Source: Lytechinus pictus (taxonomy: Eukaryota). From it: a stretch of DNA of 64,000 nucleotides. The DNA lies in assembly GCF_037042905.1 (NCBI RefSeq), contig NC_087250.1, positions 9,736,001 through 9,800,000 of the forward strand, in the 5' to 3' direction. Under the pieces are notes generated by a model. The model saw only the letters and a program-made list of their open reading frames with translations. It was not told the origin of the DNA and made no database searches. Positions 3,720 through 53,031 of the stretch are shown in pieces. Position numbers and translations under genes: made by a program. Within the stretch, counting starts at the first letter, position 1. Each line of letters begins with the position of its first letter.

Positions 3720-4447
3720 AAAAATGTGATTTTTTGAGCCCCCAATGTGACAAGATGGTGGTTCCTTTATGTAGAAAAACAACTCTTATTTTATTGAAAT
3801 CACTTGGAGACAAAACAGTAGGCTCTTCTCTATCAGCTACATTATAAAGAAGTGAGGGCACAGCAAAGCCTACCCCCCCCCCCTTACGGGACCGCCAAAG
3901 TCCCCCATCCTTTTTTCGTATTTTGCCCATTTCTTGGAAAATTCGCAATTTTTGTAGCCCCCTTGAAGGGAAAAGACGTTTCTGCTTTGCAGTCAAGTCA
4001 CCTTTATTGTTTTTAACCACTTGGAGATAAAAGAATAGACTTTCCTCTATCTGCTACATATAGGGAAGTGCTGACACAGCGAAGCCTAATCCTAAACCCT
4101 CAGGGTGCTGCCGAAGTCACTCACCCTTTTTTTTTGTATTTTACCTATTTATGGGAAAATATGCCATTTTGGAGCCCCCATTGAGGCAAAAAGCTTTTCT
4201 GCTAGGTAAAAATGCCACTTTTATTGTTTAAAACTATATGGAGACAAAAGAATAAAGTTTCCTCTATCTGCTACATATAAAGAAGTGCTGATACAGCAAA
4301 GCCTATCCCCTCTGGGGACTGTCGAAGTTACCCACCCTTTTTTTATATTTTACCTATTTGTGGGAAAATATGCCATTTTTGGAGCCCCCATTGAGACAAA
4401 AAGCGTTTCTGCTATGTAGTAAGGCCACTTTTATTGTTTTTAAACTA
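3720..4447. repeat. Diverged ~210-217-bp tandem repeat; 4 marker motifs in A, 5 in B (~22445-23380) and C (~41431-42366)
   Basis: gagcccc-type motif at ~3737, 3955, 4172, 4382 with recurring tggagacaaaa...ctctatctgctacata. Confidence 0.8.
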
Positions 4448-4452
4448 TATGA

Positions 4453-7083: not shown

Positions 7084-7981
7084 AACGTATTAATCTTGAC
7101 TCAATGCAATGTCAGAACCTTAATTTGCACCTGCCCCAAATTTAGTGCCGCCCTGTTTCCATGGCAATGTACCGGTGCGTTGTTACGTACACCTGGAATC
7201 CAAGCAACATGGGCATGATGGGGAAGCTACGAACTTAAGCAGAGGTTCAAGGTTCGAGCCCTGCGTTACTGATTAATCGTACGCTTGATTTTTACTATGG
7301 ATTGTACATCGTATTCAATGCAATACTTAATAACATAATAATTATATACAATTGTTATACAATAATGGCTTAGCCGGTATATACATACGCAATGGCGGTC
7401 ATAAAGATACATGATATATAAAATAACCAATGTTACATAGTAATAATGAAAACATATAAAAGTCATTGTTGCTTTTGTCTGTAATCTGATTGCGCCACAC
7501 CAGTCGAGCCAGTGCATACAGGGTGCACCTTGGGGGCGTTTGCCCCCCCCCCCCCTCCAAAAAAAAAACGCTTTCACCACCAAGACAAAAAAGAGATAAA
7601 ATGTAAGGAAATAAAACAGAGATGGGTGAAATGTATGTATACTATCATTTTCTGAATATTAAGTCAAAATCTATCACTAGATTCGATTTTTGTAACAAAA
7701 AATAACAAAAGTTTTGCTCGCTCTCTTCGCTCACTCGCAACATTCTATTGATTTGTTTTCCCGGTACGCCATATCTGGCACCTCAGTTCCTTTGGCTCAT
7801 CAAACCACTGAGTCGAGCTGAGTGATTTGTTGAAAATAACATTATCTCCTTACGTTTTGTGCCATGAATATTTATGAGGCGTACTGACTAAATAAGCCCC
7901 ATGATATCGTAATTTAATATGTCAATCGCGTCGTAACCGAATTGAAGCCATTTTAGTCTTTCCCCGGATGAATAGCATTTC

Positions 7982-8292
7982 GGACTTTTCGCAATTATTA
8001 CGGGGAAACTCTCTACAACGCATCAATCCCTTTGAAATTGCAAGTCAAACAACAATTGAGAGCAGAGAGGCTTTTGTCGAAAGTTGGTGGACCGGGACAG
8101 TATCGAAATATCTCGACTCTGGACAACGACATATGTGCAATCGTTCGCCCGGTGCAAATCGTCGGATGATCTGCTGTACCAGTCCACCCACTTTCGACAA
8201 AAGCTGCTCAGCTCTCCATTGTGATTTTAATTGCATTTCCAAAGGAATCAGTGTGTTGTAGAGAGTTTCCCCGTAGTAAATGCAAGGAGTCC
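7982..8292. mobile_element. Fold-back MITE directly 3' of the lectin stop codon (copies ~26907-27217, ~45894-46204)
   Basis: ggacttttcgca...cggggaaactctctacaac...ttttgtcgaaagt.ggtggac is the inverse of gtccacccactttcgacaaaa...gttgtagagagtttccccg...agtcc; arms ~115 bp. Confidence 0.85.
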
Positions 8293-8295
8293 CTA

Positions 8296-8526
8296 TTAAC
8301 CACATGAAACAGGGACCTTGCAGACAAAGGGATATCTAAAAGAACAGGGTGTGGCTCGCCATCCCGAACGTATTCCCGGGTACATTCTGTAATATGCATC
8401 GGACAAGTCCCGCAGTCCATATCCAGCAAGCCATTTGTTGTAGTTGAACGGTGTACCATCTGTCCAAACAAAGGGACCAGGTAAGCTGGGTCGGTGAAGC
8501 CCGATCCAGTACCCATTATCACCAAT
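8296..8526 (-). CDS. Paralog A C-type lectin exon 2 (terminal coding exon)
   Basis: tttccctacag|[79 protein letters not shown] then TAA TAG; this frame is not in the ORF track. Confidence 0.92.
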   Translation of the reverse strand: MGDNGYWIGLHRPSLPGPFVWTDGTPFNYNKWLAGYGLRDLSDAYYRMYPGIRSGWRATPCSFRYPFVCKVPVSCG

Positions 8527-11500
8527 CTGTAGGGAAATGACAGATGAAATACCAAAGTAGGCTTACATTTTTTCGATGAAATCTGGGCCCGTAGCAAAAA
8601 GAGGGTTAGAATGTATAACCACATTTGCTTTGATTTTTATGAAAAGCCTGATGTCTATGAGAGATCGCCCCGGATAGGTCTAATGATTCAAAAGGCTAAA
8701 CAAAACAATTGCTGCATACCACACATTTAAGTTAGGGCCTTTTCACACGTAAATCTTAAATCATCATTGCAATGATGATTGCAATTCGTCTTTAGAATCA
8801 TCGGACCTTTCACACGGAAAATTCGTATCGTAATTAGAATGAAACCTAACTGGAATTCACCTCAGGAATACAATTTGAATTCGTGAATGTGATTAGCGTT
8901 CGTGATTCTAGTTTGGTTCCACACGTGCAAAAAAATCGTCACTATAGCCTTTTTTTTTTTACTGGAATCGTCGTTCAAATCACGATTTTTTTTTTACCGT
9001 GAGAAAGGACGGTTAGTGACCTGAAAATACTCACTAGCTTTCGCAATGTAGTTGTGAAATTCAGTTCCTCTTCACTATGGATAGAAACCAGATCCCCACG
9101 ACATGACTGTCCACTGGTGAAATTACGACAGGTATACATGGCGCTTGTAAAGCTGGATAACTCGTAAAAGTGTTTGTAGCAACTTCTTTCAAAGAGTTTC
9201 CATGATGAATACGGGCAAAGATCTGCAGGTAATGATAATAATAGGCATTTATATGACTGCATCTATCTAGAAATATTCTATTCCGAGGCGCGTTATTATT
9301 ATTATTACCCCGGCTTTAGCTCGAGCTGCCTTTCAGCGCTTATGCATTCAATGAATTAATCCTGCCGGGTACCCATTCACCTCATCTGTGTTGAGTTCAA
9401 AACAATGTGGATAAATTTATTGCTGAAGGCTGGGATTCGAACCCACGACCCTCTGTTTCAAAGTCAGAAGACTTATCCACTGGGCCACAACGCTCCACAA
9501 TGTACAACAACGAAAAGCAGAGATGGTGCCTATTATTAATTAAATAGTTGGAATTCGGAGGGTTTTGAGTGACATGTCTACTATTAAATCATACTGCATA
9601 GCTCATGTAGCTCTGATGCACATCGGGAATGCATTCACCCTTTGTATTCACAATGCAGTGTAACGGCAATCGCAGGTAAAGCCAAAGATACTACAAGGGG
9701 AAGATCGGACACTTCGACGATATTTTGAAACGCTCGATAAATGCTTATGGGGAAGGGCGCCCAACAGCGTTGAGTAAGTAAACCTTCGCATATCTGCACG
9801 CGACTGTGTATAAAACCTATGGGGAAAATTAGAAAGGGGATTTTGGAGGGGTTTGGAGAGGGCTCAAGGGTGGCGCATGGAAATAATTCCACGTTTTATT
9901 ACCAAGAAACCTCTGAAATATATTCATCTCAAATTTAAGGAGAAAAAATTGAATGAAAACAATTCAAAATGTAAAATCGTCTATTCCTTCAGCCCTTCAC
10001 CATATCTCTTTTATGTTTTGTACACAACCATCTCGCGATACGCAAAGGTAAAAAAGGTCTTTACTCAACTCTGTAGGGCGCTCTTCCTGAGCGTTTCATT
10101 ACGCGGTCTATGTACTGTCCGATCTTCCCCTTGTAGTATCTTTGGTATAGCGTTTCGGGGGGTGCTGCATATGGGGAATAATACACGCAGCACCCCCTAG
10201 GAAAACCCCATCACCCCGCTGACACATTCATATGTTCTTGAAAGCATTCTGCGTCGCGGTGCTAAACTCCCTATTTAGAAGCAATAGAGTTTCGTACCGC
10301 GACGCAGAATGTTTTTTTTTTAGAACATAGGAATGTATTGCAAAAAGGTTTTCGTGACAAGGGGTAACAAAGAGGTATTTGCCGAAAATTGGTGAATCAT
10401 AACAAAAGTTTCGTCCGGGACTCTGGACGAACGATATATTTGCAATTTTCGTGTTTTTTAAATATATTTATTTCAATACGGTTAAAAAAATACTTGCTCT
10501 CAGCCGACAAGGCTGTTTCTCAGCAAGTCCGTGCAGTTCAATTTACAAAATTTTCAAAAACAAGTTGAAAAATAAAAACGGGTGTTTTCTACTCGCCGTA
10601 CGGGAAATGGGACCGCAGCGTTAGGACGAAACTGCTGATTTGGTTCACCAATATTCGACAAAGACCTCCCAGCTTTTCATTGTCATTTGACGCCTATTTT
10701 CATATCGGTTTGTGTTATAGGAAAAAGCGATCAGCCGATACAACGTGCAACAATTTACTACGTGGAATTTTAGACCAAGCTTCAGAAAAATTGAGGGGAC
10801 GGAAACAGAACTACTCCATTGATTCATATGTCGGTTTGATAATGAGGGTGATGATGGGGAGGAAATAACATAAAAGATTAAATCCATGCTGCACATATGT
10901 TTCTTATACTCCACTTACTTCAGTTTAATTTGAATCCAAAGTTCAGAATAAAGGACGAATAAGCTTACTTAACATGTTTACCATCACAAGAATAATAGTA
11001 ATAATAATGATATAACATTTATAGGGCGCTTAATACAGATGTTTCTAAGCGTTCAGTTTTCTGCTTTCTTTTGAATTACCGGGGAAAATAAAAAGTGGTC
11101 TTAATGATTTCAAACAATATTTAAAGAAACAAACGAAACGCAACTAAGATACGCACCTCCATAATAATAGACCTACCCACAACTGATATCTAGACATTAA
11201 AAAGGTGGGTCTTTAGCAAGGTCTCAAGGGAGTTGGCATTATGGATACGAGATTGTAATTTATTCCACTGGATTAGAACAAAAACAGAGAAGGCTCGATC
11301 ACCATAACTGGTATTTGTACGTGGTCCTAAAGTTAGCTGCAAGGTTTTTGAAGAGCGAAGTGGTGTGAGTGAGCTAGAAGAGCGGAGAGAGATGAGGTAA
11401 GAGAGATATTCAGGAGCTAGGCCATTGATTATTTTATACGTCAAAAGAAGATCTTTGAAAACGATGCGCTGGTGTATTGGAAGCCAATAAAATGATTTCA

Positions 11501-14500
11501 GAATATGTGTGATATGTTCAGATTTTCTTAAAAGAGTAACAAGCCTTGCAGCAGTATTTTTCATTCTTTGGAGTGGGCGTTAATGTGAGAGTGGGAAACC
11601 AGAAAGAGCAGAATTGCAGTAATCAAGGTGGAAAGATACAAAAGCATGGGTAAGTTTACTAGTTATGGTCATTGTGGTCGGGTCGAGTAGCTTCCTCATT
11701 TTTCCATGATTGGAAAATCAAATCCATGTAGCAACGTACCGTATTAAATTTGACCAATAACAGAGCCACCATTGGGATCGTTACATGTGTCTAAATGGCT
11801 TATCAATCCTTTTCATTTGCTCTTCATATCGAAAGTTCCCTGTATTGCAGAACATGGATCGGTGTCTTTTCGCTTTGTTTTCCAGGGGTCTGTTGCCGAA
11901 AGAGTTGCGTTTAAACGCAAGTCAAAAAATCAATCGCAAGTCCTAAATGCGCGCTGTTGATTGGTTGAAAATCAAGTGGCGCAAGATTTTTAGAGTTGCG
12001 ATTGATTGCAACTCTTTCTGCAACGGGCCCCTGATTGACTATTAGTAAATCTACATAATCTTTTTAAGCAAGACAGGCGCCCTTTTTAAGAGGTTGATAG
12101 TCCAGACAAATCCAAGGCTACCTTTGCAAAATATGAAATAGGACACTTATTTTGACAATCAAAGCTTTACAGGTTTCAACATCGACACGGTAGCGAATTG
12201 GAGCGCAAAGAGAAGGGTTTTTGGGGCTGTCATCGTCTTCCCTTGCTGCTCTCACACTTGAACATTCTTTATTTCGAAACCTACTATCGGTTTTTTGTCC
12301 AAATTCTGGTTATTTTCATACATACCGACTGCACATGTTGGTCCTTGAAACCTGGCTGAACAGGAGCAGGTGAAACCTTCCAGTGTTTCTGTGCATGTTC
12401 CTCCATTAAGACATGGGTTGGGTAAACAGTCTGAGATCGAGAATTTGATGTGACACGGCAAATTGAAATAGATGGGAAAGTGAGTTAGCAGGGCATATAG
12501 AAACGGAGAAAAGAGACAGAGGCAGAAACGGGGAGACATATAAAGACAGAGGCAAAAACGGGGAGACATAAAAATACAGAAGGGATGGTTTGGGAACAAT
12601 TGTAATCAGCACCTGTCATTTTACTCTCAAAACACTCGACGGCCGGATCCAGGGGGGCACATTCGGCCCGTGCCACCCCCTTTAGGAGGCACCAGTATTT
12701 TTTTTTTTGTCATTCATAGACGTGAGGACTTCTTTTTTTTTTTTTTTTTTGGCTTGTCAAATTGTTCATGGAACAGAATGACATATATTTGATATGGAAG
12801 CCCTTTTTTTGCATGTAATTTTTTTTTCTACATCAAATAACCTCGAATTGGTAGGGAGTTCTTTTTTTTCAACATTTTCCTATAAATAAGTACCTCCCCT
12901 CCCCCTTAGAAAATCTTGGAATCACCCAGGCTCGATACAATCCACACCCTTGGTGAAGTACAAACTAGACAATGTTTTTTTTTTATTCCATGACGTAAAA
13001 TTGGTAGTTCCATTAGTATGTGGGCCATTCCATGCTAGAAAAATCTGCCATTTTCTCAACATTTGTCAACCTGCTGTCCAGACGAACGAAGAACTTAAAT
13101 TTGCTTTGTGGTAATATTGAAGGACTACTGGGTAGACATGCAAAAAACTGACAACAAACAAAATATGTTGTCCATAGTTGAATTAGAGCTTGAAATGTTG
13201 CGTGCCGTACGGGACATTTCTGCGTCCCTTACGACACTTTTCACCTCTAATTTACCCAGAATCTATTTTGTGTGTGTGTTGGTTATTAATTTTTCACATG
13301 ACTTCCCACGATAGCTTTATCATTGACAACAAAGAATATTTTATTGCTCAAGCATTCGGCTAGGAAACTAGAAATTGTTGTCAAAATGTCCCGTACGAAA
13401 CGCGTGGAATCGCCCATGTTGAATTCACAGCGGAGCAATTGCCCACCGGAGCAAATTTCATCGAATCATTATGAGCCACCAATTTTCGACAAAGAATTCT
13501 TGCTCTATGTCATGAAGGACACTTGATATTTTATCCTACATAAATTAAATTTTTTATGCTAATTGGTCTGAATAGCATCATGTGACCAAACATATTTTCA
13601 CTATTTTGCGATGATGTTGAAAATGAAATGACCATCGAAGAAAATTGACTATTCCGTGATGTCGATAACGGAATAGTGCACTATTCCATCATTGACATCA
13701 CAGAATACTGACACACATCATGCAATCTCTCGGGCGCATCGGTTAGCGAGGCAATTCTACCGGGCAAATTTTTGGCGTAGGCACAAATCCGCGCGATATC
13801 TGTATTTTAGTTCAGATTAAAAAGGATGAAATAGGTGTGCAAAAACTAGATTATCAAGACGTATTGTTCTAACTTAATATTAAATGTACGATATAAAACA
13901 AATATACCAGGTCTTTATTTCGAAAGTATAGAGGGAATTATTCATCCTCGGTTGCGCTGGCAAAATTAGTAATGCCAGTCCAACCTCGGACAAATAATTA
14001 CTCAAGGCTGATATATTTATATGATATACCTTCCCTGCTTCTGGACCCTCCGTACTTCGTGGAGCGAAAACTCGCTGCAGATATAAAAAAATGACAGTCT
14101 TAAAAGAGGCTTTGACAACATACCTGGGAGTTTGAAGATGAAGATGAATCGATTTGAAACGATTCTATTTATCCCTGGCCAGTTGGTGTCATCTCTGACT
14201 ATTAACTTGGGTTCCAGGGCAGCGATGTCTACCGTTTGCAGTAAGCCTGCTCCGCACCTTGCGTTTACTGGCATACCAAACTTTAAGACTGAAAAAAAAA
14301 ATCAGACGAGGTTCCAAGTCAGTCCCATCCCTACCGTCTTCGGTGAGCAAAAAAAAATATGTGGCTTGGCCCTGGGAAGCGGGGGTATACTGGGGAGAAG
14401 GGGGGGGTATCTTTCTTTTTCTTTTTTCGCGAATTTTGTCGCCAAATTTGTCGTGATGTATATTAACCTTGCTTGAGCTGTGATCAAACCAGCGCCTGAA

Positions 14501-14893
14501 ACTGGATGGAAGTTGTCAGGATTCCAGCAGGAGAGCCAATTTGGGGAGTGTTATAGGATATCACGTATAAACGGAAGCGTAAAAGAAAACACTGGTACGC
14601 CGAGTACAAAACGAAATTGATTATTGATCATCGATTCTTTTTTTAAGCATCCATGGGACTAAGCTTGAAGGGAGGTTGATGATGTTGGAGAAGTATGCAA
14701 CGAATAAGAGGGTTATCAACACAGAGCGTTCGTGCATAATAAGCTAAAAGATAAATGCAAAATACCACAAAATATACGTATTGGGTTAGAAATATTACGG
14801 AATCCATGTGACATAAACGTAACTAAGTAAATACTTACTCAAAAGCAAAAAGCTTGTTAGCACTAGAGATCTTCTAACGAAACCTCTCGTCAT
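8296..14893 (-). CDS. Secreted EGF + C-type lectin protein, paralog A; exons 14893-14839, 14288-14124, [14074-14030 optional], 12430-12326, 9222-9035, 8526-8296; 247 aa (262 with the optional exon)
   Basis: All junctions GT-AG with compatible phases (1,1,1,0). Translation: [33 protein letters not shown]...[54 protein letters not shown]...[14 protein letters not shown]...YWIGLH...FVWTDGT...[15 protein letters not shown] and WxDG CTLD motifs and a 6-Cys EGF. Confidence 0.85.
9035..9222 (-). CDS. Paralog A C-type lectin exon 1
   Basis: cctgcag|AT...CTA|gtgagt, 188 nt; [20 protein letters not shown]. Confidence 0.92.
9230..9498 (-). mobile_element. tRNA-derived SINE abutting the lectin exon 1 acceptor (copies ~28156-28424, ~51822-52093, partial ~60113-60343)
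   Basis: Same head, A/B boxes and core on the minus strand; tail ataaatgcctattattatcatta runs into cctgcag. Confidence 0.85.
9676..10152. mobile_element. MITE with long TIRs; the host of the retroelement stack in copy C
   Basis: ccaaagatactacaaggggaagatcggaca ... tgtccgatcttccccttgtagtatctttgg. Confidence 0.75.
10991..11720 (-). mobile_element. Degenerate 3' fragment of an L2/CR1-group LINE (copies ~29930-30660, ~61855-62575)
   Basis: LDYCNS, NTAARLV, HIT..LK...[32 protein letters not shown]; tail agcgccctataaat...ttatt. Confidence 0.85.
11885..12031. mobile_element. MITE
   Basis: ggggtc.gttgc.gaaagagttgc ... gcaactctttctgcaacgggcccc. Confidence 0.75.
12326..12430 (-). CDS. Paralog A EGF-domain exon
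   Basis: 105 nt, phase 1-1, ctcag|...|gtatgt; [12 protein letters not shown]...FTCSC...FQGPTC. Confidence 0.92.
14030..14074 (-). CDS. Possible optional 45-nt exon ([15 protein letters not shown]); copy in B at 32974-33018
   Basis: Acceptor tttttttatatctgcag, donor aag|gtatat, phase 1-1, open; only 49 nt from the exon 2 donor. Confidence 0.35.
14124..14288 (-). CDS. Paralog A coding exon 2 (end of signal peptide plus unassigned N-terminal segment)
   Basis: Acceptor tttttttttcag, donor cag|gtatgt, 165 nt, phase 1-1, open; completes the signal peptide with a V-N-A cleavage-like site. Confidence 0.7.
14839..14893 (-). CDS. Paralog A coding exon 1 (signal peptide [18 protein letters not shown])
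   Basis: ATG in context gaagATGa; basic then hydrophobic residues; strong donor A|gtaagt; upstream acceptor tcttgtttccag at 14918-14919 implies a further 5'UTR exon. Confidence 0.75.
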
Positions 14894-15489
14894 CTTCTTC
14901 AACGCCGAGTATATTTACTGGAAACAAGAGATGCGTAAACATGGACAAGTTTGTGTATTGATTTGATTTTTACGCATTTACATAGCATTTACGATTTATG
15001 TCATTCACGCAGACAAGTTATTACATGAATGATAATAATAATACTAATTATTATTATTATTATATAACTTATCCGTTAGTATTTGCACATATGGGCAGTT
15101 GTAATTATATATTATAATGGTAATGGATTTGATTTTTTTTCTAATCAGTATGACCATTTAGTTTTTCTTCCGAGGCCAAGTATAATAATAATAACAATAA
15201 TAATAATAACAATAATGATAATAACAATGATGATAACAACAAAAGCTGGATTTTTAAGCGATCTTTGTCTGAGGATACATAGCGCTGCAATAATTACCCC
15301 AGCTTTAACTGTGCTGCTATGGCCCTTGGAAGCGGGGTGCTGAGTGTATTAATCACCATTGGCAGCACCCCCAGGTATTCTGGCATAAATTGGGGGAAAA
15401 TCTTAACCAAAATTACCCTCATTTTGTAGTAAAACCCCCTGTTTGTTGTTTTCTTTTTTCAAATTTCTTGAAACCAATTTGAGCTCCTG

Positions 15490-15685
15490 GAGGGCCCTGA
15501 TACGGGCTAAAGCTGAAGCATTCAAGGAATTTCTTCCTACAGGTTACCCATTCATCTCGCCTGGGTTGAGTGCAGCACAATGTGGGTAAATTTCTTGAAG
15601 GAAAGTAGACCATGGCTAGGAATCGAACCCACGTCCCTCAGATTAAAAGATGAGAGTCATAAAGTACTAGACCACGACACCCCCA
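15490..15685 (-). mobile_element. Diverged tRNA-SINE (copy ~34440-34635)
   Basis: Minus strand gtggtctagt...ggttcgattcctagccatgg...gctgcactcaacccagg core. Confidence 0.7.
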
Positions 15686-16262
15686 CATAAAGAGCAGAAC
15701 AAATCGTAGCAGGTGATGGATGATCCGATGTTATCTCTTTTCCTCAACTTTGCAGGGCGTATTTATGTTACCATCATAATCATAACACACACACAAACAA
15801 AACTACACCACGGTCGTTTCCCTCCAGGGCTGCAACTTGTCACCTTTGCTATTTCATTCTTGCTTTCACTTAGTTTACGAATGTTTTTCGAATGTTTTCC
15901 AAGGACGTTATGTGCGTCAACGCAGAGAATAATCCTTTGTTCATAGGGGGAACAATGCTTACCCCCCCAAAAAAAAAATTACTGTCCTCTGACTGACGCT
16001 CATGATGGACATGATGGTAAAAATGGTAAAGATAATGTCTGTTACCTCTGCCTTGTTTCCTTTTGCATCCGCAAGCCTCACAAAATTAGTACAGACCTTA
16101 AAACATTCATACTTATCAAGGCAGAATCTCCTAAGTCAAGAATACGCATGCATTCAATGCGCGCAAATTGTGTTTCGTCGCAGAGCAACACACTACAGCA
16201 GTGGCACGAAGACAGCATTTACGCATTGATTGTCAAGATCCCAACGTGAATGATAGCTTTAA

Positions 16263-16855
16263 AGGGGAATCCAGCCCTGGCCATACACTGTTGTGTTGAG
16301 AAGGAGAAAAATAAATTAAAGAGAATGGTGATAGTTTGAAAGAAATTGGACAAGCAATAAGAAAGTTATAGCTGTTTATAAATTGAGATCACTAATACTA
16401 TGTAGATTTCAAATTGGCAAATGGGTAAGTAAATTATGACAAGGGGCAAGGACAACTTTCCCATAGGCCATGTACTTTATTATCAGCGATTTGTGGTTTT
16501 CTCCTAAGTACCCATTCCCCTGGGGCCTTAATCTAAATATAACACAGGTAGTATATTGTTTTATGTCCTCATGAAAGAAAAATATAAATTAAAATAAAAC
16601 TTTTGGGAAAAATGACATTTTAGCCATAATATGCATTGGAGTACATGGAAGAGTATTCCTTGCCTTACATCACTATGACATCCCATATGCGGCCATTTGA
16701 AGTCTCCATGGGTATAGTGATTACCAATATTTACAACTTTTAAAAATTCATAACTTTCTTGTTGTTTGTCCAAATTGTTCAAACTTCCACCTATCAACTT
16801 GTCTGATTTTTATTTTCCTTATAAAAACAAGTTTTTATTTGGGTTTGATTCCCCT
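16263..16855. mobile_element. TTAA-flanked TIR element (Kolobok-like); copy ~35216-35810
   Basis: ttaa|aggggaatcca...tgattcccct|ttaa. Confidence 0.8.
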
Positions 16856-16859
16856 TTAA

Positions 16860-17220
16860 AGGTATACGTTCCTGGAATTCATGAGGGCGTTGGACAAACT
16901 ACGCTCAACTTGCGGCGCCAGCTACTCATTGGCACCAGTGCAATACGACGCCTACGCAGATGCCACGTTCTGTATGCCCGAACTGCATGACGACTTTCAA
17001 TTCGCGTATGCTTCAGCTGCTGTTCAAAGATCTTGGCAGGTTGGCCCCGCCTCCTACTGCAGTGACGTAAGCAGATCAACGCAGCGCAGTACTGTGCATA
17101 GGTACATGCACATCACTGGTGATTGACAGCCGCATGCAAATTACATGTACGACAATGATCTTTGTAAAGAGGTAAGAGGCGAGTAGAGCAGTAACAATAC
17201 CGTCCAACAGCGCCATACCT
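16860..17220. mobile_element. Second TTAA-flanked element sharing its TTAA with the previous one
   Basis: ttaa|aggtat...atacct|ttaa; GC-richer interior. Confidence 0.6.
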
Positions 17221-17612
17221 TTAATGAGCATATCCGAGATACCGAATTCAAATGATGACCGGAAGCACTCTCAAAACAAAACAGTCGAAATGACTAGTTA
17301 ATCGGGTCAGTTGAGTGCAAACTGTCATTCTAGTCATGTATATTCTAATTGTATTTTACTAGAACAGAGTTATTTCTGACTAGAATATACGTCAGAAATG
17401 TGACTAGACATTGTCAGTTGCACCCAGCTGACTACTGATCTAGTCATTTTGACTGCTGTGATTCAAGGATGTGTGACCAGGGCTTCACAAGACAAAGAGC
17501 CTTGCTCTAAAACTGACCATGCTCATGCATGGAATTAACTTCAAGAAAAAAATTAATAGGACGAACATCCATTTCCCCCAGATACTTTTCCTACCTACAA
17601 CAGAAATGATTT

Positions 17613-17763
17613 ATACCTCGGTCACATTTGCTCTACGGCGAGTCGAAAACAGCCGTTTTATTCATTTTTTCTAAACCACCTTTATGTAGCTGGTACAAAA
17701 ATGTTAAAACGGTCGTTTTCGATTCGCCGTACGGCCGCCGTAGAGCAAATGTGACCGAGGTAT
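17613..17763. mobile_element. Palindromic MITE (copy ~36568-36718)
   Basis: atacctcggtcacatttgctctacggcg ... cgccgtagagcaaatgtgaccgaggtat, perfect 28-bp TIR. Confidence 0.85.
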
Positions 17764-17922
17764 CAGTGTTAAACAGTGTGGGGGTATTCTGAACTTCGGT
17801 TTAATCTAAACTCTTGTCTAAAGTTGTGGTTTAACAATGAAAAGTCAGTCGTGGCACAAGTCTCTAGGAAAAAAGTATTTGGCAGACTAGTTAATTAGAA
17901 TATAAAAATGTGTAAAAATAGT

Positions 17923-18710
17923 AACTTATATATTTTTTCTTGGCATCCAGGCTGAAAGCTTGCTCATTGAAAATAAGGAGCGCGCAATTAAAACCAAACC
18001 ATTCAATTTTTGGCCTCTCGTAGTTTTAACACTGGCTTAGACTATTCTATAACTTACACCCTACTTCGGAATACCGTCCAACCTTATATATTTTCTTGCC
18101 ATCCAGGCTGGAGGCTGGCTCATTAAACATAAGGAGTGCGCAATTAAAACCAAACCATTCAATTTTTGGCCTCTCGTAGTTTTAACACTGGCTTAGACTA
18201 TACTATAACTTACACCTTACTTCAGAATACCGTCCAACCTTATATATTTTTTCTTGCCATCCAGGCTGAAAGCTGGCTCATTAAACATAAGGAGCGCGCA
18301 ATTAAAACCAAACCATTCAATTTTTGGCCTCTCGTAGTTTTAACACTGGCTTAGACTATTCTATAACTTACACCCTACTTCGGAATACCGTCCAACCTTA
18401 TATATTTTTCTTGCCATCCAGGCTGGAGGCTGGCTCATTAAACATAAGGAGCGCACAATTAAAACCAAACCATTTAATTTTTGGCCTCTCATAGTTTTAA
18501 CACTGGCTTAGACTATACTATAACTTACACCTTACTTCAGAATACCGTCCAACCTTATATATTTTTCCTTGCCATCTAGGCTGGAGACTGGCTCATTAAA
18601 CATAAGGAGCGCGCAATTAAAACCAAACCATTTAATTGTTGGCCTCTCATAGTTTTAACACTGGCTTAGACTATACTATAACTTACACCCTACTTCGGAA
18701 TACCGTCCAA
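17923..18710. repeat. Minisatellite, 5 x ~157 bp with alternating A/B variants (copy ~36878-37668)
   Basis: atccaggctg-type motif at 17945, 18101, 18259, 18416, 18574. Confidence 0.92.
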
Positions 18711-19807: not shown

Positions 19808-22800
19808 CCACTCCCGCACTACCATTCACACATGCATGCACAGCATTATGATTGATCTGATCTTTAAACAAATGAGTAACTTTGAATTAACATTTGTTTC
19901 GAAAAAAGCATTAAAGGACAAGTCCACTCCAACAAAAAGTTGATTTGAATAAAAAGAGAAAAATTCAACAAACATAACACTGAAAATAGCATCATAATCG
20001 GATGTAAAATAAGAAAGTTATTACATTTTAAAGTTTCGCTTAATTTTACAAAACAGTTATATGCTCATCCTGGTCAGTATGCAAATGAGGAGACTGATGA
20101 CGTCATCCACTCACTATTTCTTTTGTATTTTATTATATGAAATGTGAAATATTCTAATTTTCTCCTCATTGCCAAGTGAAACAACGATTAACTCCTCCCT
20201 GAACATGTGGAGTTAGCATTGTTTAACACTATATGGTTCAGTCAAGTTGGTCCTTGATATTATATATTGTATTGTATTGTAAATATTGTATAATTCAAAC
20301 ATAAAAAACAAAAGAAATAGTGAGTGATGAACATCATCGACTGACTCACCTAGTTGTGCATATCACTGTTTTGTGAAAAATAAGCGGAACTTTAAAATGT
20401 CATAACTTTCTTATTTTACATCCGATTTTGATGAAATTTTCAGAGTTGTGCTAGTATTATTTTTCTCTATTTATTCAAATCAACATTTTTTGGGGGTGGA
20501 CTTGACCTTTAACTTAGGAATTAGATGGACAACTACACCTGGGTTTCCTTATTCATATAGTGCAGTGGGTTCTTAATGTGCAAAGGTGGTGACTTTCCTC
20601 TAGACAGGACCTCAAATTAACGCCCTATCCGAGAGACGGTTTTCTTCGACTGTAACATAGCCAGCATCGATAGAACAGAAATGAAACGTATATTATTCAA
20701 TCATGTATATTTTTGTTGTTTTTATATTTTTTTGTGAATTATGTTTTAAGGGGCTTGTTGAAAAATAGCCTGACGGTCAAGAGCTTTTTTACACCATATT
20801 GAAATTAACAAACAAACAAATAAACAGAACTGGAGCTTTTTTTTCCTTGTGCTGATATATCCCTAGACACCTATAACAAACTTAGCACCTAAAAACACTC
20901 ATAACATGCGTAACTGTAGGAACCGGTTTGTGCAACATCACCCAATAACAGGTAGGGGAGACCAGTGACAATTGTAACATGGGGCAAATGTAACAGAGGC
21001 TCCCACTAGTCCGGCAGCCCAGGAGATTTATTCAACCGGAAGCCGGACAAGCAAATGACCCCATAGCTGGATGGCATGGACCCTGAAATTTACAAAAATG
21101 CATTGCTGCCGGGTTTTATCCGTGGTCTTCCCGCCGAAATGATCTATAACGTCACTACAAAATGGCCCTATTTCACCATTTTTTTGACATTCTACACATC
21201 GCATGAAGTCAAGGTGGAATAGCTCAGCCAAACCATACTTGTTTTGTATGAAACTTACAAAATATATTGTTCAAGTATTGAAAAGAGACATGCAAAATTT
21301 CACAAACAGGAATTATTGTTTACATATGCAAATTACGTCATGAAATTTGCATATCATTAATTTTTGATATTTTTTGCATCAAAAATTGTCGAAAATCGAT
21401 TTAGAAATTTATTTTCTTTTTTAGTGTACTTTTTTTGATATATTTCCTGTCAAGCATAATAGCGTTCTCTTTATCTATATCTATACTTTTAGAAAATATA
21501 TGTCAGTAATTGGAAAAGGCATTATAGACTGTGATTTCAGCCCCCTTTTCAATATGGTGCGTATATAGAAATCGTGCGTTTTGGGCCTATTTTCACCATT
21601 AAGCTGAGGTGTGCGAACGATATGCCCACTTTATCGATGTTTCCTGCATTTTGCATGATATTAAATCTTCGAAACAACATATTTTCATCTTAATTATGTC
21701 TCTGCTGATAAATAAATGATTTCAGCAAAGATTGATTGCCCACTGGGCAGTCTATAGGTTACGTTTTCAGCCTAGTTTTCGACGACGAACATATACCATG
21801 TATGACTGCATTATTGTAGTCGAGTCGGAAATGGGAGTTCCTGTGCACCATCAAAATATACTTTTAAATCAACGTTTTTGTATTCCCTGAAGTGTCTAGT
21901 TAATGAATCTTGATGTTTTCTTTGCAAAATCGTGTCCCACTGGGTTCAAATTGATATTTTTGGCGGCCCTTTTGGATTTTTTTCAATGAAAATTCATTAT
22001 TTTCATATTTTTGTGCAGAGAGTGTGACAATAGGACAATCTTACATGAATACGCATTTTACTATGATTCGGATAGTAGAAATCGGTTGAAATCGTTTTCT
22101 GGACAGACCTGCTAATATATTTTGAAATAAATCAAAATATACCCCGAAATTGTCATGCTTTTGGTCCAAAATTTGCATGTGCATTGATATCTATCTGCTC
22201 AGTCATTAACATCAACAACTATTGCAAAATACCAGCATTCGACACGAAAGAGGATATATTATACCAAGAATACTGAAACGCTTCGTGACAGTATAAATGA
22301 ATGTCTTAATTTGCTTAGTTAAAGGGAAAATACCATGTATTACTCGTTATTGCGATAAAGTGACACAAAAAAGCAACCTCTGTGTCATAGGCACACCTGC
22401 AAGAGCCCGAGGAAGGTCCCCTTTCCCTATCAGTAGCTTGACTAAAAAATGAGATTTTTTGAGCCCCCAATGTGACAAGATGGTGGTTCCTTTATGTAAA
22501 AAAACAACTCTTATTTTATTGAAATCACTTGGAGACAAAACAGTAGGCTCTTCTCTATCAGCTACATTATAAAGAAGTGAGGGCACAGCAAAGCCTACCC
22601 CCCCCCTTACGGGACCGCCAAAGTCCCCCATCCTTTTTTCGTATTTTGCCCATTTCTTGGAAAATTCGCAATTTTTGTAGCCCCCTTGAAGGGAAAAGAC
22701 GTTTCTGCTTTGCAGTCAAGTCACCTTTATTGTTTTTAACCACTTGGAGATAAAATAATAGACTTTCCTCTATCTGCTACATATAGGGAAGTGCTGACAC

Positions 22801-25800
22801 AGCGAAGCCTAAGCCTAAACCCTCAGGGTGCTGCCGAAGTCACTCACCCTTTTTTTTTGTATTTTACCTATTTATGGGAAAATATGCCATTTTGGAGCCC
22901 CCATTGAGGCAAAAAGCTTTTCTGCTAGGTAAAAATGCCACTTTTATTGTTTAAAACTATATGGAGACAAAAGAATAAAGTTTCCTCTATCTGCTACATA
23001 TAAAGAAGTGCTGATACAGCAAAGCCTATGCCCTTTGGGGACTGTCGAAGTTACCCACCCTTTTTTTTATTTCACCTATTTGTGGGAAAATATGCAATTT
23101 TTGGAGCCCCCATTGAGACAAAAAGCGTTTCTGCTATGTAAAAATGCAACTTTTATTTTTGTTACTGTATGGAGACAAAAAATGGAGGTTCCTCTATCTG
23201 CTACATAATAAAGAAGTGCTGGTACAACAAAGCCTACCCCCTCTGGGGACTGCCGAAGCTACCCACCTCTTTTACGTATTTTACCCTAATGGGAAAATAT
23301 GCCATTTTTGGAGCCCCCATTGAGGCAAAAATCGTTTCTGCTATGTAGTAAGGCCACTTTTATTGTTTTTAAACTATATGATGGAGCGTTGTGGCCCAGT
23401 GGATAAGTCTTCTGACATTGAAACATTCTGCTGCACTCGACCCAGGTAAGGTGAATGGGTACCCGGCAGGATTAATTCCTTGAATGCACGAGCGCTGAAA
23501 GGCAGCTCGAGCTAAAGCCGGGGTAATCATAATAATAACGCGCCTCGGAATAGAATATTTCTGGATAGATGGCGCTATATTGGGATGCCGTTGGGATGAA
23601 AGTATATTTCAGGTGGAATTTTCTTTGAAGAAAAAAAAGTTATATTCGTGCCAAATGTATTCTACTGTCTGTTATTATACTTTCAAACATCGTTTAATAG
23701 AAATATATAAATGTCAAATCAATGATTTATATTACATTTTCTATCATGATATGTCACTACTGGAAACCTATGTTTGTGTAGAAAAGTAACGAACAAAAAT
23801 ATGAAATGTTGTGTCACGTTTTTATTTTTATTTGTCTAAAATATGAAGATGTTTGGGGAAAAATGACACATAAATATTGTTCAACTCCCGATGAAAAAGC
23901 AAAGTGATAGAGGGGCATGATATACTCATTTGTTTGATATCGAATTCGTCATGATAGCACAAATATTTTATAAGATACAGTAAAATCTTATGATGTTTGG
24001 CAAGTGTCAACTTTTCTTTGAGTTTCTTTGGTGTATGTAAATTTTTGGCCTCATGGCAGCGTGCAAAGCCTTTCATATAAATGTTTTTAAAAAATACTGC
24101 TAAACCTCGAAAACAAAGAAAAAAGGGTGAAACACTCCATGTAATTTACAAACCAATTCTCCATACGATTACAATCGACAATTGTTCACTGCCAAATATT
24201 TGTAAAAACATCACAATTCGAAATAATCAATTTACAGTGGTCAGAAAGGATTGTAACATATATATAAAAGGCGTAGAAATGGATAAAACTTCAATAGGCC
24301 GCTTTCTGAGAACAACAAGGGGAGCCCGGGCTTTAAATCTCAAAAGTACATACACTTGATAGAACTTCCCCTACCAAGGCGGGGAAAACCTGTCCAGGGT
24401 CCCGATATCTCGCAATACTGCATACAAACGTCACCTACTGGCTAGCTCAGTGACTTTGTCAAATTCGAGCAGGCTGGCAAATCACAACCCAGCATTCATT
24501 ACACCGATATAATAATGGGTGTGACGTAATTATGAAAAGTGGGCAGCTCTCCGATAAACAAATCACTGATCGGCCACATGGTTTTCGTCAACAAGAAAGC
24601 CACAAATGTTGAGGATATAAATCCACAGGTGAGAGGTAACTCACTGAGGTTCGAGCCATTATCCATATCAAATTTTTTTCGGTATGGCCTAAATAGAGAT
24701 CTCTCTTGGCTGGACAAAATTATATATATTTTTTAAAATGATTTCAGGAATATTTCATGAGTTAATCAGCAATAATCATCTTACTAGGCTATCAATTTAC
24801 TTTTAGGTACTTTCATTCTTTCTTGTCTAGCACACATTTAATTCTCCTCCAAACATGTTGACACTTGATTTCAAGATAGAGTAATATTGGAGTTCATTGT
24901 CACCTCATTTTATCCTGAATGAGTCTTATATTAAGAGGCCTTTATCGATTACCTTATTCTTTTAATGCATATTCATGAGTCCAGGACGAAGCTGCTGTTT
25001 TGATACACCAATTTTCGACAGAGACTTTATAGGTTGATCTTTGTCACGAATGGGATTCGATAATACATGTTCTATGTTCTTGAAAGAGTTCTTCGTCGCA
25101 GCGCAACAACTTGATAATGAGATGGGGGTATTGTTGATGAGATATTGCTTGAGTATCGTCTGAGGCGGTTTTCCGTCATGCAAAAGATGTGGAGCGTCGT
25201 GGCCCAGTGGATTAGTCTCCGGACTTTGAAACAGAGGGTCTTGGGTTCAAATCCCAGCCATGGCGTAATTTCCTTCAGCAAGGAATTCATCCACAGTGTG
25301 CTGCACTCGACCAAGGTGAGGTAAATGGGTACCGGCAGGAAGTAATTCCTCAGAAAGCTGTGTGCACCTGCTTAGCCGGGTAATACTGGTAGCAGGGCCT
25401 GCTGGGAGAACAGTTTTCGGAACTGAAGTGGCTACCCTGGGTAAAAATACCGTTATTATTATTATTATTATTATCATACAGATCGAGCTTGTCTTGGTGG
25501 ATACATATTGTAATCCTACCGAGTCTGGCCCGAATGCCTCTGGAAAGCAGACAGCAAAAAAAAAACCAAGCATTTTATTTCAGAGACTCAAGGATGTAGG
25601 GAAGGGCAAGGGCAATATCACAGAATATTAACACAGTGACCAAACAAAATCAATTCAATTCTTTATTCCATTTCCATTCAAAACACAATACAAAGAAATA
25701 TACATCAGATACAATATTAGAGATGAGCATCCTTACTTCGTAAACAAAAAAAATCACAATGTCTTCCCTTTGAAGTAAATAGAAAACAATAATAATGTTT

Positions 25801-27220
25801 GTAACTAATCATTTATATTGGGATTTATTCATTGTTTAGTCCATACCAGGGCTCCATAACACAAAGGTTTGAACTCAATCGCTAAATACCAATGACCAAT
25901 CAAGATCTTCGTTGCACGCGCACTCTGTTTAAAATACTGACCGGGAACGTTCGGTGCGGTTCTTTCATACATGCAATTCATCGGAAGCCTTTGTGTTACG
26001 GAGCCCTGAACGTATTAATCTTGACTCAATGCAATGTCAAAACCTTAATTTGCACCTGCCCCAAATTTAGTGCCGCCCTGTTTCCATGGCAATGTACCGG
26101 TGCGTTGTTACGTACACCTGGAATCCAAGCAACATGGGCATGATGGGGAAGCTACGAACTTAAGCAGAGGTTCAAGGTTCGAGCCCTGCGTTACTGATTA
26201 ATCGTACGCTTGATTTTTACTATGGATTGTACATCGTATTCAATGCAATACTTAATAACATAATAATTATATACAATTGTTATACAATAATGGCTTAGCC
26301 AGTATATACATACGCAATGGCGGTCATAAAGATACATGATATATAAAATAACCAATGTTACATAGTAATAATGAAAACATATAAAAGTCATTGTTGCTTT
26401 TGTCTGTAATCTGATTGCGCCACACCAGTCGAGCCAGTACATACAGGGTGCACCTTGGGGGCGTTTGCCCCCCCCCCCCTCCAAAAAAAAAAACGCTTTC
26501 ACCACCAAGACAAAAAATAGATAAAATGTAAGGAAATAAAACAGAGATGGGTGAAATGTATGTATACTATCATTTTCTGAATATTAAGTCAAAATCTATC
26601 ACTAGATTCGATTTTTGTAACAAAAAATATCAAAAGTTTTGCTCGCTCTCTTCGCTCACTCGCAACATTCTATTGATTTGTTTTCCCGGTACGCCATATC
26701 TGGCACCTCAGTTCCTTTGGCTCATCAAACCACTGAGTCGAGCTGAGTGATTTGTTGAAAATAACATTATCTCCTTACGTTTTGTGCCATGAATATTTAT
26801 GAGGCGTACTGACTAAATAAGCCCCATGATATCGTAATTTAATATGTCAATCGCGTCGTAACCGAATTGAAGCCATTTTAGTCTTTCCCCGGATGAATAG
26901 CATTTCGGACTTTTCGCAATTATTACGGGGAAACTCTCTACAACGCATCAATCCCTTTGAAATTGCAAGTCAAACAACAATTGAGAGCAGAGAGGCTTTT
27001 GTCGAAAGTTGGTGGACCGGGACAGTATCGAAATATCTCGACTCTGGACAACGACATATGTGCAATCGTTCGCCCGGTGCAAATCGTCGGATGATCTGCT
27101 GTACCAGTCCACCCACTTTCGACAAAAGCTGCTCAGCTCTCCATTGTGATTTTAATTGCATTTCCAAAGGAATCAATGCGTTGTAGAGAGTTTCCCCGTA
27201 GTAAATGCGAAAAGTCCCTA

Positions 27221-27451
27221 TTAACCACATGAAACAGGGACCTTGCAGACAAAGGGATATCTAAAAGAACAGGGTGTGGCTTCCCATCCCGAAGGTATTC
27301 CCCCGTACATTGTGTAATATGCATCGGACAAGTCCCGCAGTCCATATCCAGCAAGCCATTTGTTGTAGTTGAACGGTGTACCATCTGTCCAAACAAAGGG
27401 ACCAGGTAAGCTGGGTCGGTGAAGCCCGATCCAGTACCCATTATCACCAAT
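27221..27451 (-). CDS. Paralog B C-type lectin exon 2
   Basis: 231 nt, open to TAA. Confidence 0.92.
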   Translation of the reverse strand: MGDNGYWIGLHRPSLPGPFVWTDGTPFNYNKWLAGYGLRDLSDAYYTMYGGIPSGWEATPCSFRYPFVCKVPVSCG

Positions 27452-33400: not shown

Positions 33401-33843
33401 TCGTGATGTATATTAACCTTGCTTGAGCTGTGATCAAACCAGCGCCTGAAACTGGATGGAAGTTGTCAGGATTCCAGCAGGAGAGCCAATTTGGGGAGTG
33501 TTATAGGATATCACGTATAAACGGAAGCGTAAAAGAAAACACTGGTACGCCGAGTACAAAACGAAATTGATTATTGATCATCGATTCTTTTTTTAAGCAT
33601 CCATGGGACTAAGCTTGAAGGGAGGTTGATGATGTTGGAGAAGTATGCAACGAATAAGAGGGTTATCAACACAGAGCGTTCGTGCATAATAAGCTAAAAG
33701 ATAAATGCAAAATACCACAAAATATACGTATTGGGTTAGAAATATTACGGAATCCATGTGACATAAACGTAACTAAGTAAATACTTACTCAAAAGCAAAA
33801 AGCTTGTTAGCACTAGAGATCTTCTAACGAAACCTCTCGTCAT
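27221..33843 (-). CDS. Secreted EGF + C-type lectin protein, paralog B; exons 33843-33789, 33232-33068, [33018-32974], 31367-31263, 28148-27961, 27451-27221
   Basis: Same exon lengths and intact splice sites as A; differs at N/K in exon 2 and at 4 residues in the last exon ([14 protein letters not shown]). Confidence 0.85.
27961..28148 (-). CDS. Paralog B C-type lectin exon 1
   Basis: 188 nt; one synonymous change versus A (CTG/CTA). Confidence 0.92.
31263..31367 (-). CDS. Paralog B EGF exon
   Basis: 105 nt, same as A. Confidence 0.92.
33068..33232 (-). CDS. Paralog B coding exon 2
   Basis: 165 nt, intact splice sites; GIKRI versus GINRI in A. Confidence 0.7.
33789..33843 (-). CDS. Paralog B coding exon 1 (signal peptide)
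   Basis: Identical to A exon 1; gtaagt donor. Confidence 0.75.
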
Positions 33844-46207: not shown

Positions 46208-46435
46208 TTAACCACATGAAACAGGGACCTTGCAGACAAAGGGATATTTTAAAAAACAGAATGTGTCTCGCCATCCCGAACGTACTACCCAGTACATTGT
46301 GCAATATGGATTGGACAAGTCCAGTCCATATCCAGCAAGCCATTTGTTGTAGTTGAACGGTGTCCCATCTGTCCAAACAAAGGGACCAGGTAAGCTGGGT
46401 CGGTGAAGCCCGATCCAGTACCCGTTATCACCAAT
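46208..46435 (-). CDS. Paralog C C-type lectin exon 2
   Basis: 228 nt (one codon shorter than A/B), open to TAA TAG. Confidence 0.92.
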   Translation of the reverse strand: MGDNGYWIGLHRPSLPGPFVWTDGTPFNYNKWLAGYGLDLSNPYCTMYWVVRSGWRDTFCFLKYPFVCKVPVSCG

Positions 46436-52400: not shown

Positions 52401-52421
52401 TGTGTATAATAATAATAATAA

Positions 52422-52464
<43 letters not shown>

Positions 52465-52975
52465 CCTGTAGTAGAGAACGACGATGTAAAACTTTTATGG
52501 GATTTTAATATCCAGACAGACAAGGTCATTGAAGCTAGACGACCAGACATCGTTCTCTTAAAGAAGAAGGAAAAGGAATGTCTCATCATAGATATTGCGA
52601 TTCCGGGAGACTGCAGAGCTTGGCGTAAAGAGGAGGAAAAGATACAGAAGTATAACGATCTGGCATGGGAGCTGAGAAGGATATGGAAGGTGAAGACGAA
52701 GGTGGTACCAATAGTCATCGGAGCCTTAGGAACAGTGACAACAAGACACAGAAGCTGTCTGGCTGTTCTAGGAGTCGAGGTGTCCTTTGAAACGATACAG
52801 AAGGCAAGCTTGCTTGGAACAGCTCATATCTTACGGAAGGTCTTGAATTAGAAAGAGAAGTGAACAATGAGAAGAGGACCCATTTGATAGAATATAGAAC
52901 AATAACCCTAGATTTCTGGAAGAAGTCCGGTTGCTGTTTAATATACCAACATAACATCAAGTTGTGGACAATGGA

Positions 52976-53031
<56 letters not shown>

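Follow-up and report, generated by a model that had tools for sequence, protein, structure and literature searches.

A hypervariable patch in the lectin-like domain of a tandem EGF-lectin gene array in the sea urchin Lytechinus pictus

The window analysed here is a 64,000-nucleotide stretch of the genome of the sea urchin Lytechinus pictus (assembly GCF_037042905.1, contig NC_087250.1, called C6 below, positions 9,736,001 to 9,800,000), and it contains three members of a tandem array of ten small genes that encode an EGF domain followed by a C-type lectin-like domain. In the last exon of these genes, a patch of 26 codons varies between copies at a ratio of replacement to silent substitution rates (dN/dS) well above 1. 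We think it likely, though some way from certain, that this is a lineage-specific ten-gene array in which the surface of a former sugar site is kept diverse by positive selection and versions of that surface are moved between copies by gene conversion.

The motifs of the Ca2+/sugar site, namely EPN or EPS, WND and the beta3 Cys, survive in paralogues elsewhere in the genome and in homologues from other sea urchins, whereas in the array EPN has changed to YGL in every copy and WND to W[R/Q/E][A/D]. In the scenario that we propose, the former Ca2+/sugar surface, from the residue after EPN to just past the third Cys, has been diversified by positive selection, with the scaffold, EGF domain and introns staying 92-99% alike. 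The three main patch types are internally mosaic, and short conversion tracts shift versions between copies. The patch may bind a ligand other than a classical Ca2+-held sugar, and that ligand may itself be variable, whether microbial, gametic or a marker of self and non-self. The evolutionary part of the original prediction for this DNA holds.

The array and its variable patch

Comparison of the window with itself reveals repeated units of ~18.9 kb. Over 23.9 kb, unit A (~3.8-22.7 kb) matches unit B (22.7-41.7 kb) at 98.2% identity, with 273 substitutions in 18,913 aligned bases of the A-B unit (1.44%), and unit C is a third unit that is broken up by insertions at ~46563-51253 and ~52409-60259. 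A search of the organism's own genome (812 Mb, 368 contigs) with the last exon returned 58 matches at E ≤ 0.001, ten of which are 81-100% identical and lie together on C6 at 9.70-9.94 Mb; the next best paralogue is 52% identical. These ten copies are designated G1, G2, A, B, C, G6, G7, G8, G9 and G10, with A, B and C (3 of the 10) inside the window. The EGF exon and both exons of the lectin-like domain occur in order in all ten. Non-coding divergence within the array is ~1.4-8%, in keeping with the young tandem family that the original prediction, made from the letters of this DNA, had proposed.

The gene lies on the minus strand, and its 744-nt coding sequence is divided among five exons: a signal-like exon, an orphan module of 55 codons, the EGF exon, and two exons for the C-type lectin-like domain. 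The patch occupies the following positions in the three copies of the window.

8335-8412, minus strand: the hypervariable patch in copy A, which spans exactly 26 last-exon codons (codons 210-235 of the full-length sequence)
27260-27337, minus strand: patch of copy B, type II, one base apart from that of G9 and G10
46247-46321, minus strand: patch of copy C, type III, 25 codons, with the beta3 Cys kept; identical in G6 and G8

The six clustered replacements between A and B that first marked out the patch are real, and fall at 8357, 8358, 8369, 8378, 8379 and 8387, a span of 31 bp in which R/T, P/G, R/P and R/E are exchanged. As had also been stated, the rest of the A/B coding sequence holds one replacement (N/K in exon 2) and one silent change (CTG/CTA in exon 4), giving eight differences in 744 nt. 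Between A and C, the patch has 14 nucleotide differences that amount to 12 replacements and a one-codon indel, none of them silent, again as described. The claim that changes prefer codon positions 1 and 2 extends to the ten copies, in which third positions make up only 2 of 20 substituted columns. The EGF exon, said to be invariant at the protein level, is so in nine of the ten copies; G10 has a single A/T change.

The patch is the densest cluster of A-B differences outside a misaligned tandem repeat at 3798-4345, and the probability of at least 6 substitutions in 33 bp is 1.1e-5 per window of that size. After a scan of ~19 kb, this cluster by itself is only suggestive; the collection of all paralogues that the original prediction had asked for makes the excess in the patch robust. 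Across the ten copies, replacement changes in the patch number at least 23, against 1 silent change and the indel codon, and its substitutions involve all four bases. The remaining 147 codons of the three downstream exons have undergone ~16 replacement and ~11 silent changes, and exons 1 and 2 have ~7 replacement and 5 silent changes, nearly all of them in G10. Three patch types can be told apart: G1 and A have type I, to which G2 is intermediate; B, G9 and G10 have type II; and type III is shared by C, G6 and G8, which are identical, and G7, which has two further changes. Long tandem units that are nearly identical are difficult to assemble, and consensus or collapse errors in such an array could in principle create spurious variants. 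Each type, however, recurs in separately placed copies (G1 and A for I; B, G9 and G10 for II; C, G6 and G8 for III), and the differences avoid third positions and preserve the frame, as sequencing errors would not; an assembly artefact is scarcely credible.

The last exon by itself scores 28.8 bits with Pfam family PF00059 (Lectin_C), for which the cut-off is 22.6 (E 2.1e-6), and the match spans positions 40-106 of the 107 in the profile. All of its 61 matches among solved structures are lectin-like domains, and it aligns with the mannose-receptor family and many others. Hallmarks of the fold, namely WIGL and the cysteines C0, C0', C1, C3 and C4, are present in all ten copies as YWIGL, DLC, RSC, YTC, T[PFT]C and FVC. 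The residue at the position of the beta3 Cys (C2, the partner of C3; codon 143 in three-exon numbering), as set by alignment to solved chains and homologues, is Cys in four copies (C, G6, G7 and G8) and Tyr in the other six, including A and B. Neither EPN nor QPD is found at the position of the first sugar-site motif, which reads YGL in all ten copies, and the WND position reads WRA, WEA, WQA, WQD or WRD, with W*D in G7. The loss of both motifs that had been noted in the window therefore extends to the ten-copy alignment, with YGL invariant and WND replaced by W[R/Q/E][A/D]. By comparison, paralogues on contigs C16 and C21 keep EPN or EPS, and WND, the C16 sequence reading ...WARDEPNYGDKEDCAHYYTYAAGWNDRSC..., and sea-urchin homologues such as the S. 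purpuratus protein P0157 (XP_011677710.1, 'C-type lectin mannose-binding isoform-like') read ...WKSKEPNNANNNEDCAHLF...WNDRNC.... Because both defining motifs (EPN/QPD and WND) fail, the array domain is, judged by its motifs, lectin-like and not a classical Ca2+-dependent carbohydrate-recognition domain.

The position of the patch on the fold was obtained from P0157, in which residues 154-180 align opposite it. The predicted model of P0157 has a mean predicted local distance difference test score (pLDDT) of 85.5 and a predicted template modelling score (pTM) of 0.76, with strands at 161-165, 171-175 and 181-188, and among structures it is matched best by CEL-I, a lectin of the sea cucumber Cucumaria echinata (PDB 1wmy and 4wqq), with a template modelling score (TM-score) of 0.88-0.90 on the target. 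CEL-I also matches the array last exon in sequence (E 1e-5); we take it to be a Ca2+-dependent lectin specific for N-acetylgalactosamine, with a classical site and lacking an EGF domain. In the model alignment, the patch covers the loop after EPN, beta3, the turn, beta4 and the start of the loop before beta5, which agrees with the location given in the original prediction; on this model it is predicted to run from the post-EPN loop through beta4 and to end three residues past the third canonical Cys. Classical C-type lectins have their primary Ca2+/sugar site in this loop-beta3-beta4 region.

The total number of cysteines is even in types I and II, in which the beta3 Cys is missing and its usual partner is retained, and odd in type III; exon 2 adds one further cysteine (RCGAG). 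These counts hint that disulfides or dimers are arranged differently from one patch type to another.

Selection on the patch

Codon models of the Goldman-Yang type were fitted in our own implementation (F3x4, kappa estimated) to the full coding sequence (247 codons, 9 distinct sequences) on the coding-sequence tree. The dN/dS ratio omega is 4.15 in the patch and 0.45 in the rest, and omega = 1 in the patch is rejected (twice the log-likelihood difference, 2dlnL, 20.5; p = 6e-6). Model M2a is preferred to M1a (2dlnL 21.4, p = 2e-5) with omega of 17 at 2% of sites, and empirical Bayes analysis picks out codon 126 in exon 4 and codons 221, 228 and 231 in the patch. A version restricted to the last three exons reproduced this outcome on the coding tree, and with a tree of flanking non-coding sequence the result was stronger. 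With omega in the patch at ~4.2 and neutrality rejected at p = 6e-6 on this larger set, the diversifying selection proposed in the original prediction is supported. The signal comes from the whole family, the A/B pair taken alone overstating the mutation rate.

Simple counts lead to the same view. The ratio of replacement to silent changes in the patch (23:1) differs from that in the rest of the three exons (~16:11; Fisher p = 0.0025). In Nei-Gojobori comparisons of A with C, the proportions of replacement and silent sites that differ (pN and pS) are 0.238 and 0 in the patch, and 0.015 and 0.058 in the rest; over all pairs, pN in the patch reaches 0.27 with pS of 0, and elsewhere pN is 0.006-0.03 and pS is 0.01-0.07. 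The minimum number of changes per site is 0.30 in the patch, whereas the 445 non-coding sites next to it have 0.085 (Fisher p = 1.3e-6), so that the patch changes at 3.5 times the rate of flanking non-coding DNA, and it is 0.067 in the last exon outside the patch. Silent sites within the patch are not raised (1 change in ~16.5 sites), and for this reason an old island that has escaped homogenisation is ruled out as the sole account of the patch.

Several points weigh against a functional gene family under selection. All array sequence comes from one assembled haplotype. The patch was delimited from the same data with which it was tested, which makes the partition test partly circular, and recombination, which is demonstrated in the array (see below), inflates site-model tests. 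The test within the patch alone (S ≤ 1 of 24, p = 0.02) has only ~16.5 silent sites behind it. The frame is open in nine of the ten copies, the exception being G7, which carries a TGA codon within the patch.

C6:9846477-9846704, outside the window (locus L010): copy G7, with CGA changed to TGA at the W-R/Q/E position and Y changed to F

In the public protein search, no protein at least 40% identical over the whole last exon was found, and the exon 2 module returned no relative (nor did it match any Pfam family). Expression was assessed by comparing window positions 7900-17900 with three raw RNA runs, apparently under the same species label, and one DNA contig set. RNA depth in the three runs is zero in the bins that hold the EGF exon and exon 1, and is 1-8 in the other exon bins, which also contain repeats; none of 15 listed joints (there are 413 more) lies at an exon boundary. 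The array genes may be unannotated, or silent.

Some of these points are what would be expected if constraint had simply been relaxed, with the binding loops drifting freely after loss of the sugar site and conversion spreading the resulting versions. The disappearance of the Ca2+/sugar motifs from all ten copies is compatible with such drift, as are the stop codon in one copy (G7), the lack of an expression signal in the three RNA runs and the weak test (p = 0.02) on the patch's own silent sites. Drift, however, predicts omega of ~1, whereas omega in the patch is ~4 and the value of 1 is rejected (p = 6e-6). Nor should drift outpace non-coding DNA, yet the patch exceeds the adjoining intron and 3' flank by the 3.5-fold given above, and the surrounding residues have been conserved along with the Cys framework and splice sites, with omega of 0.45 outside the patch. 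We consider relaxed constraint unlikely.

A second variable cluster is found in exon 4 (9143-9175, minus strand; codons 125-135), where K/E/Q, H/K/S, S/A and S/G alternate. It lies away from the patch in sequence, aligns to beta1 and the start of helix 1, and includes codon 126 (CAC/AAA/TCA), the strongest positively selected site under M2a.

Exchange between copies

Exchange was examined at sites where B agrees with either A or G9, over ~4.4 kb. At 142 of the 164 informative sites B has the base of A, but from 8387 down to 8251 it equals G9 at 10 of 11 consecutive informative sites, as compared with 12 of 153 elsewhere (p = 9e-11). Half of the ten G9-like sites (8287, 8286, 8284, 8254 and 8251) are in the 3' untranslated region (UTR), where the five A/B differences fall within 37 bp; these sites lie beyond the reach of selection on the protein.

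27176-27312, minus strand: minimal gene-conversion tract of copy B (8251-8387 in A coordinates), G9/G10-like

The simplest reading is one conversion tract of 137-305 bp, bounded by 8206 and 8512, from a copy of the G9/G10 type into B. The remaining patch difference, at 8358 (CAA to GAA), is private to B and is read as one later mutation. The six A/B patch differences are therefore not independent mutations, five having been imported in a single tract. The converse possibility, that A is the converted copy, would require two donors.

Four gametes are present at 12 of 171 pairs of biallelic sites within the patch, and G2 and G7 change affinity between patch and flanks, the 3' flank of G7 being of G9 type unlike that of its sister copies; on these two grounds exchange is recurrent. 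The segmental exchange that the original prediction had offered as an option is thus found in the B tract and the four-gamete pairs; that it is 'targeted', as suggested there, is not borne out.

Diversity-generating retroelements (DGRs) are recognised by an invariant template copy near the variable region and by changes confined to template adenines. In the array, changes hit all four bases. A 91-nt type III patch sequence has seven matches in the whole genome, all seven of them the array's own exons, and a search of 264 kb for template 11-mers that could account for the type III changes found none beyond chance matches. A diverged paralogue, template switching and a DGR-like mechanism were rejected as the origin of type III, there being no donor elsewhere in the genome and no local template in the 264 kb searched.

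An inverted repeat adjoins the last exon.

7982-8292, unstranded: inverted repeat with 119-nt arms, 81% complementary, and a 73-nt spacer

It starts 4 bp past the stop codon in every copy. Its depth in the DNA contig set is very high and RNA reads map to it on both strands, and it is probably a dispersed element, resembling a miniature inverted-repeat transposable element (MITE), with which the 3' UTR begins. That it promotes exchange is speculation.

The repeat could also be taken as the seat of a mutational hot spot, in which error-prone repair, linked to frequent conversion or breakage beside the repeat, raises mutation in the last 150 bp of the gene and the replacement excess is partly due to chance. 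Such an account would draw on the 119-nt arms that begin 4 bp past the stop codon, on recombination breakpoints that cluster between the patch and the 3' flank, on clustered multi-nucleotide changes such as CCGGGAATA to TGGGTAGTA, and on the five A/B differences in 37 bp of the 3' UTR. It would, however, have silent sites hit as well, whereas the patch has 23 replacements against 1 silent change, and third positions account for only 2 of its 20 substituted columns. The stretch of 36 coding bases from patch to stop should likewise be hit, yet the exon outside the patch, at 0.067 changes per site, is below the non-coding rate. The conversion tract already accounts for the 3' UTR cluster, and the type III changes have no local template in 264 kb. 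We assign a hot spot a low probability, below that of relaxed constraint.

A more far-reaching version of the favoured reading is a recognition system that shuffles cassettes, in which short conversion tracts would be aimed at the exon with the binding site, with the inverted repeat next to each stop codon as a possible initiator, and would move patch versions among the ten copies. We regard this as very improbable. Were it true, a raised germ-line or even somatic rate would be possible, each animal or cell could hold a combinatorial repertoire of binding sites built on an unchanging EGF-lectin scaffold, and the array would be an echinoderm parallel to the conversion-based diversification of vertebrate receptors.

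Relatives, gene structure and surroundings

Judged by sequence, the closest relatives of the array genes are sea-urchin EGF-lectin proteins that still have a sugar site. P0157 and the two Lytechinus pictus proteins P0160 ('neurocan core protein-like' in the source) and P0163 ('echinoidin-like') likewise have an EGF domain followed by a long-form lectin-like domain, and they share with the array the motifs CLPNPC.NGG.C, GQSC..DLVSIHS, WIGL..PDP.GPF.WSDGT and a C-terminal KLP..C, together with an extra Cys pair. All three keep EPN or EPS, WND or WHD, and the beta3 Cys, whereas the array has YGL and lacks WND. Identity between the array and P0157 is 63% in the EGF exon, 55% in exon 4 and 32-36% in the last exon, the low last value being due to the patch. 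A word-index search with the last exon gave 5 matches from 16 candidates, all of them long multi-lectin proteins at 25-34% identity. A full-library search gave 875 matches at E ≤ 0.001; among the best 150 of these 875, identity is at most 37%, save for one match of 54% over residues 5-35. Full-text literature searches found no paper on this array or on a sea-urchin EGF-lectin array with a hypervariable patch.

In behaviour, the nearest analogues of the array are the C-type lectin-like proteins of snake venoms (snaclecs), the lectin-like receptors of mammalian natural killer (NK) cells (Ly49/KLR) and the suREJ lectin domains of sea urchins. Snaclecs and the NK receptors have lost Ca2+/sugar binding, are encoded in tandem arrays and bind protein ligands. 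Both show accelerated replacement at the binding surface and gene conversion, and snaclecs are loop-swapped heterodimers. They differ from the array in lineage and architecture, having neither an EGF domain nor the orphan N-terminal module; snaclec chains give weak sequence matches to the array last exon (E 0.001-0.009). Sea urchins rely on large, fast-changing families of innate recognition proteins, and gamete-recognition proteins are a classic instance of positive selection. In sea urchins, positive selection in the lectin domains of suREJ proteins was reportedly found by Mah, Swanson and Vacquier in 2005. SpREJ1 has a lectin-like domain together with an EGF domain (PMC1934368). The suREJ proteins resemble the array as sea-urchin lectin-like domains reported under positive selection, a likeness at the level of domain type; REJ proteins differ in being large multi-domain membrane proteins of the PKD1 family, the array genes being small, tandem and single-domain. 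The SpTransformer (Sp185/333) genes are described (PMC5103432, PMC5491942) as clustered, nearly alike, small sea-urchin genes flanked by repeats and segmental duplications and diversified in a recombination-like manner. They encode unrelated proteins with no lectin fold, and their diversity is made of mosaics of elements and repeats, not of one 26-codon patch.

A lectin-like domain with loss of sugar binding and fast-changing binding loops in a tandem array is a theme familiar from venom proteins, NK receptors and suREJ, and the array extends it. It offers a compact and well-delimited case, with ten near-identical genes, one 26-codon surface and a visible conversion tract. If the genes are expressed, the three patch types would be ready natural variants for a comparison of binding, and the array would be suited to measuring how conversion and selection jointly maintain diversity.

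The exons in the window are as follows.

14839-14893, minus strand: exon 1 of copy A, inferred, with ATG, a signal-peptide-like stretch and a GTAAGT donor
14124-14288, minus strand: exon 2 of copy A, 165 nt, the 55-codon module with no family match
12326-12430, minus strand: exon 3 of copy A, the EGF domain with a Pfam match
9035-9222, minus strand: exon 4 of copy A, which encodes the N-terminal half of the lectin-like domain
8296-8526, minus strand: last exon of copy A, which encodes the C-terminal half of the lectin-like domain and has the stop codon at 8296-8298
27221-27451, minus strand: last exon of copy B; its other exons are at 27961-28148, 31263-31367, 33068-33232 and 33789-33843
46208-46435, minus strand: last exon of copy C, whose exon 4 spans 51627-51814 and whose EGF exon spans 63180-63284

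Exons 1 and 2 of copy C fall past the end of the window. All five exon boundaries are intact in the ten copies, the last three exons having AG acceptors and GT donors throughout. The exon 1 protein consists of a basic stretch, a hydrophobic stretch and VNA, followed by an R early in exon 2; the exon is the same in nine copies and has 4 changes in G10. Based on this signal-like exon and the extracellular domain types, the array protein is probably secreted. Exon 2 is intact with AG and GTATGT in all ten copies, and its protein sequence is nearly invariant. It is conserved at 49-72% protein identity beside paralogous lectin genes on C19, C21 and C16, and this conservation argues that it is a real coding exon; its end resembles the N-terminus of P0157. 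The EGF exon matches PF00008 at 36.1 bits against a cut-off of 21.5 (E 7.6e-9) and has its six cysteines in all ten copies. A tblastn search of unit A for upstream exons like those of P0160 (a second EGF domain and a Thr-rich linker) found none.

An RGD tripeptide is encoded in exon 4 (9092-9100, minus strand) in all ten copies, and homologues have HAD, HGD or PID there. The intron between the EGF exon and exon 4 contains an open frame of 129 codons (11190-11579, minus strand), which presumably corresponds to the C-terminal part of a retrotransposon reverse transcriptase.

A search of sequencing runs listed no RNA run, and all 20 listed word shares are at most 0.11. In the three RNA runs, depth reaches 100-690 on both strands, with huge depth in the DNA contig set, at 9236-9569, 11908-12241, 15248-15915 and 16250-16917. 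Joints from 9320/9321 to 15512-15518, and from 15597 to 9428, occur in RNA and DNA alike. The high-depth stretches are pieces of transcribed dispersed repeats and not exons of the array gene.

The two insertions of unit C (~46563-51253 and 52409-60259) are probably transposable-element sequence. Large insertions enlarge the introns of copy C and its sister copies G6-G8, whose units are ~31-35 kb, and the window has a strong AT skew (0.22-0.29) at 52-56 kb. Each unit has a tandem repeat of ~157 bp (17925-18710 and 36880-37666) whose copy number varies by unit, with many more copies upstream of G9, and a more diverged tandem repeat of ~215 bp (3798-4451, 22456-23380 and 41442-42367); both repeats are possible substrates for unequal crossing-over.

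Related lectin-domain genes form further tandem arrays on C17 at 11.77-12.83 Mb (loci L020-L022, L025 and L026) and on C21, C16 and C19 (L018). The C17 copies lack EPN and WND and differ from one another mainly in the loop-beta3-beta4 region, indels included, which suggests that variation in this region is a general habit of such lectin expansions in the genome. The C19 gene has in common with the array a KVPV.CG end and has the closest exon 2 (72%). Another exon of the genome (L030) is identical to the public protein P0163.

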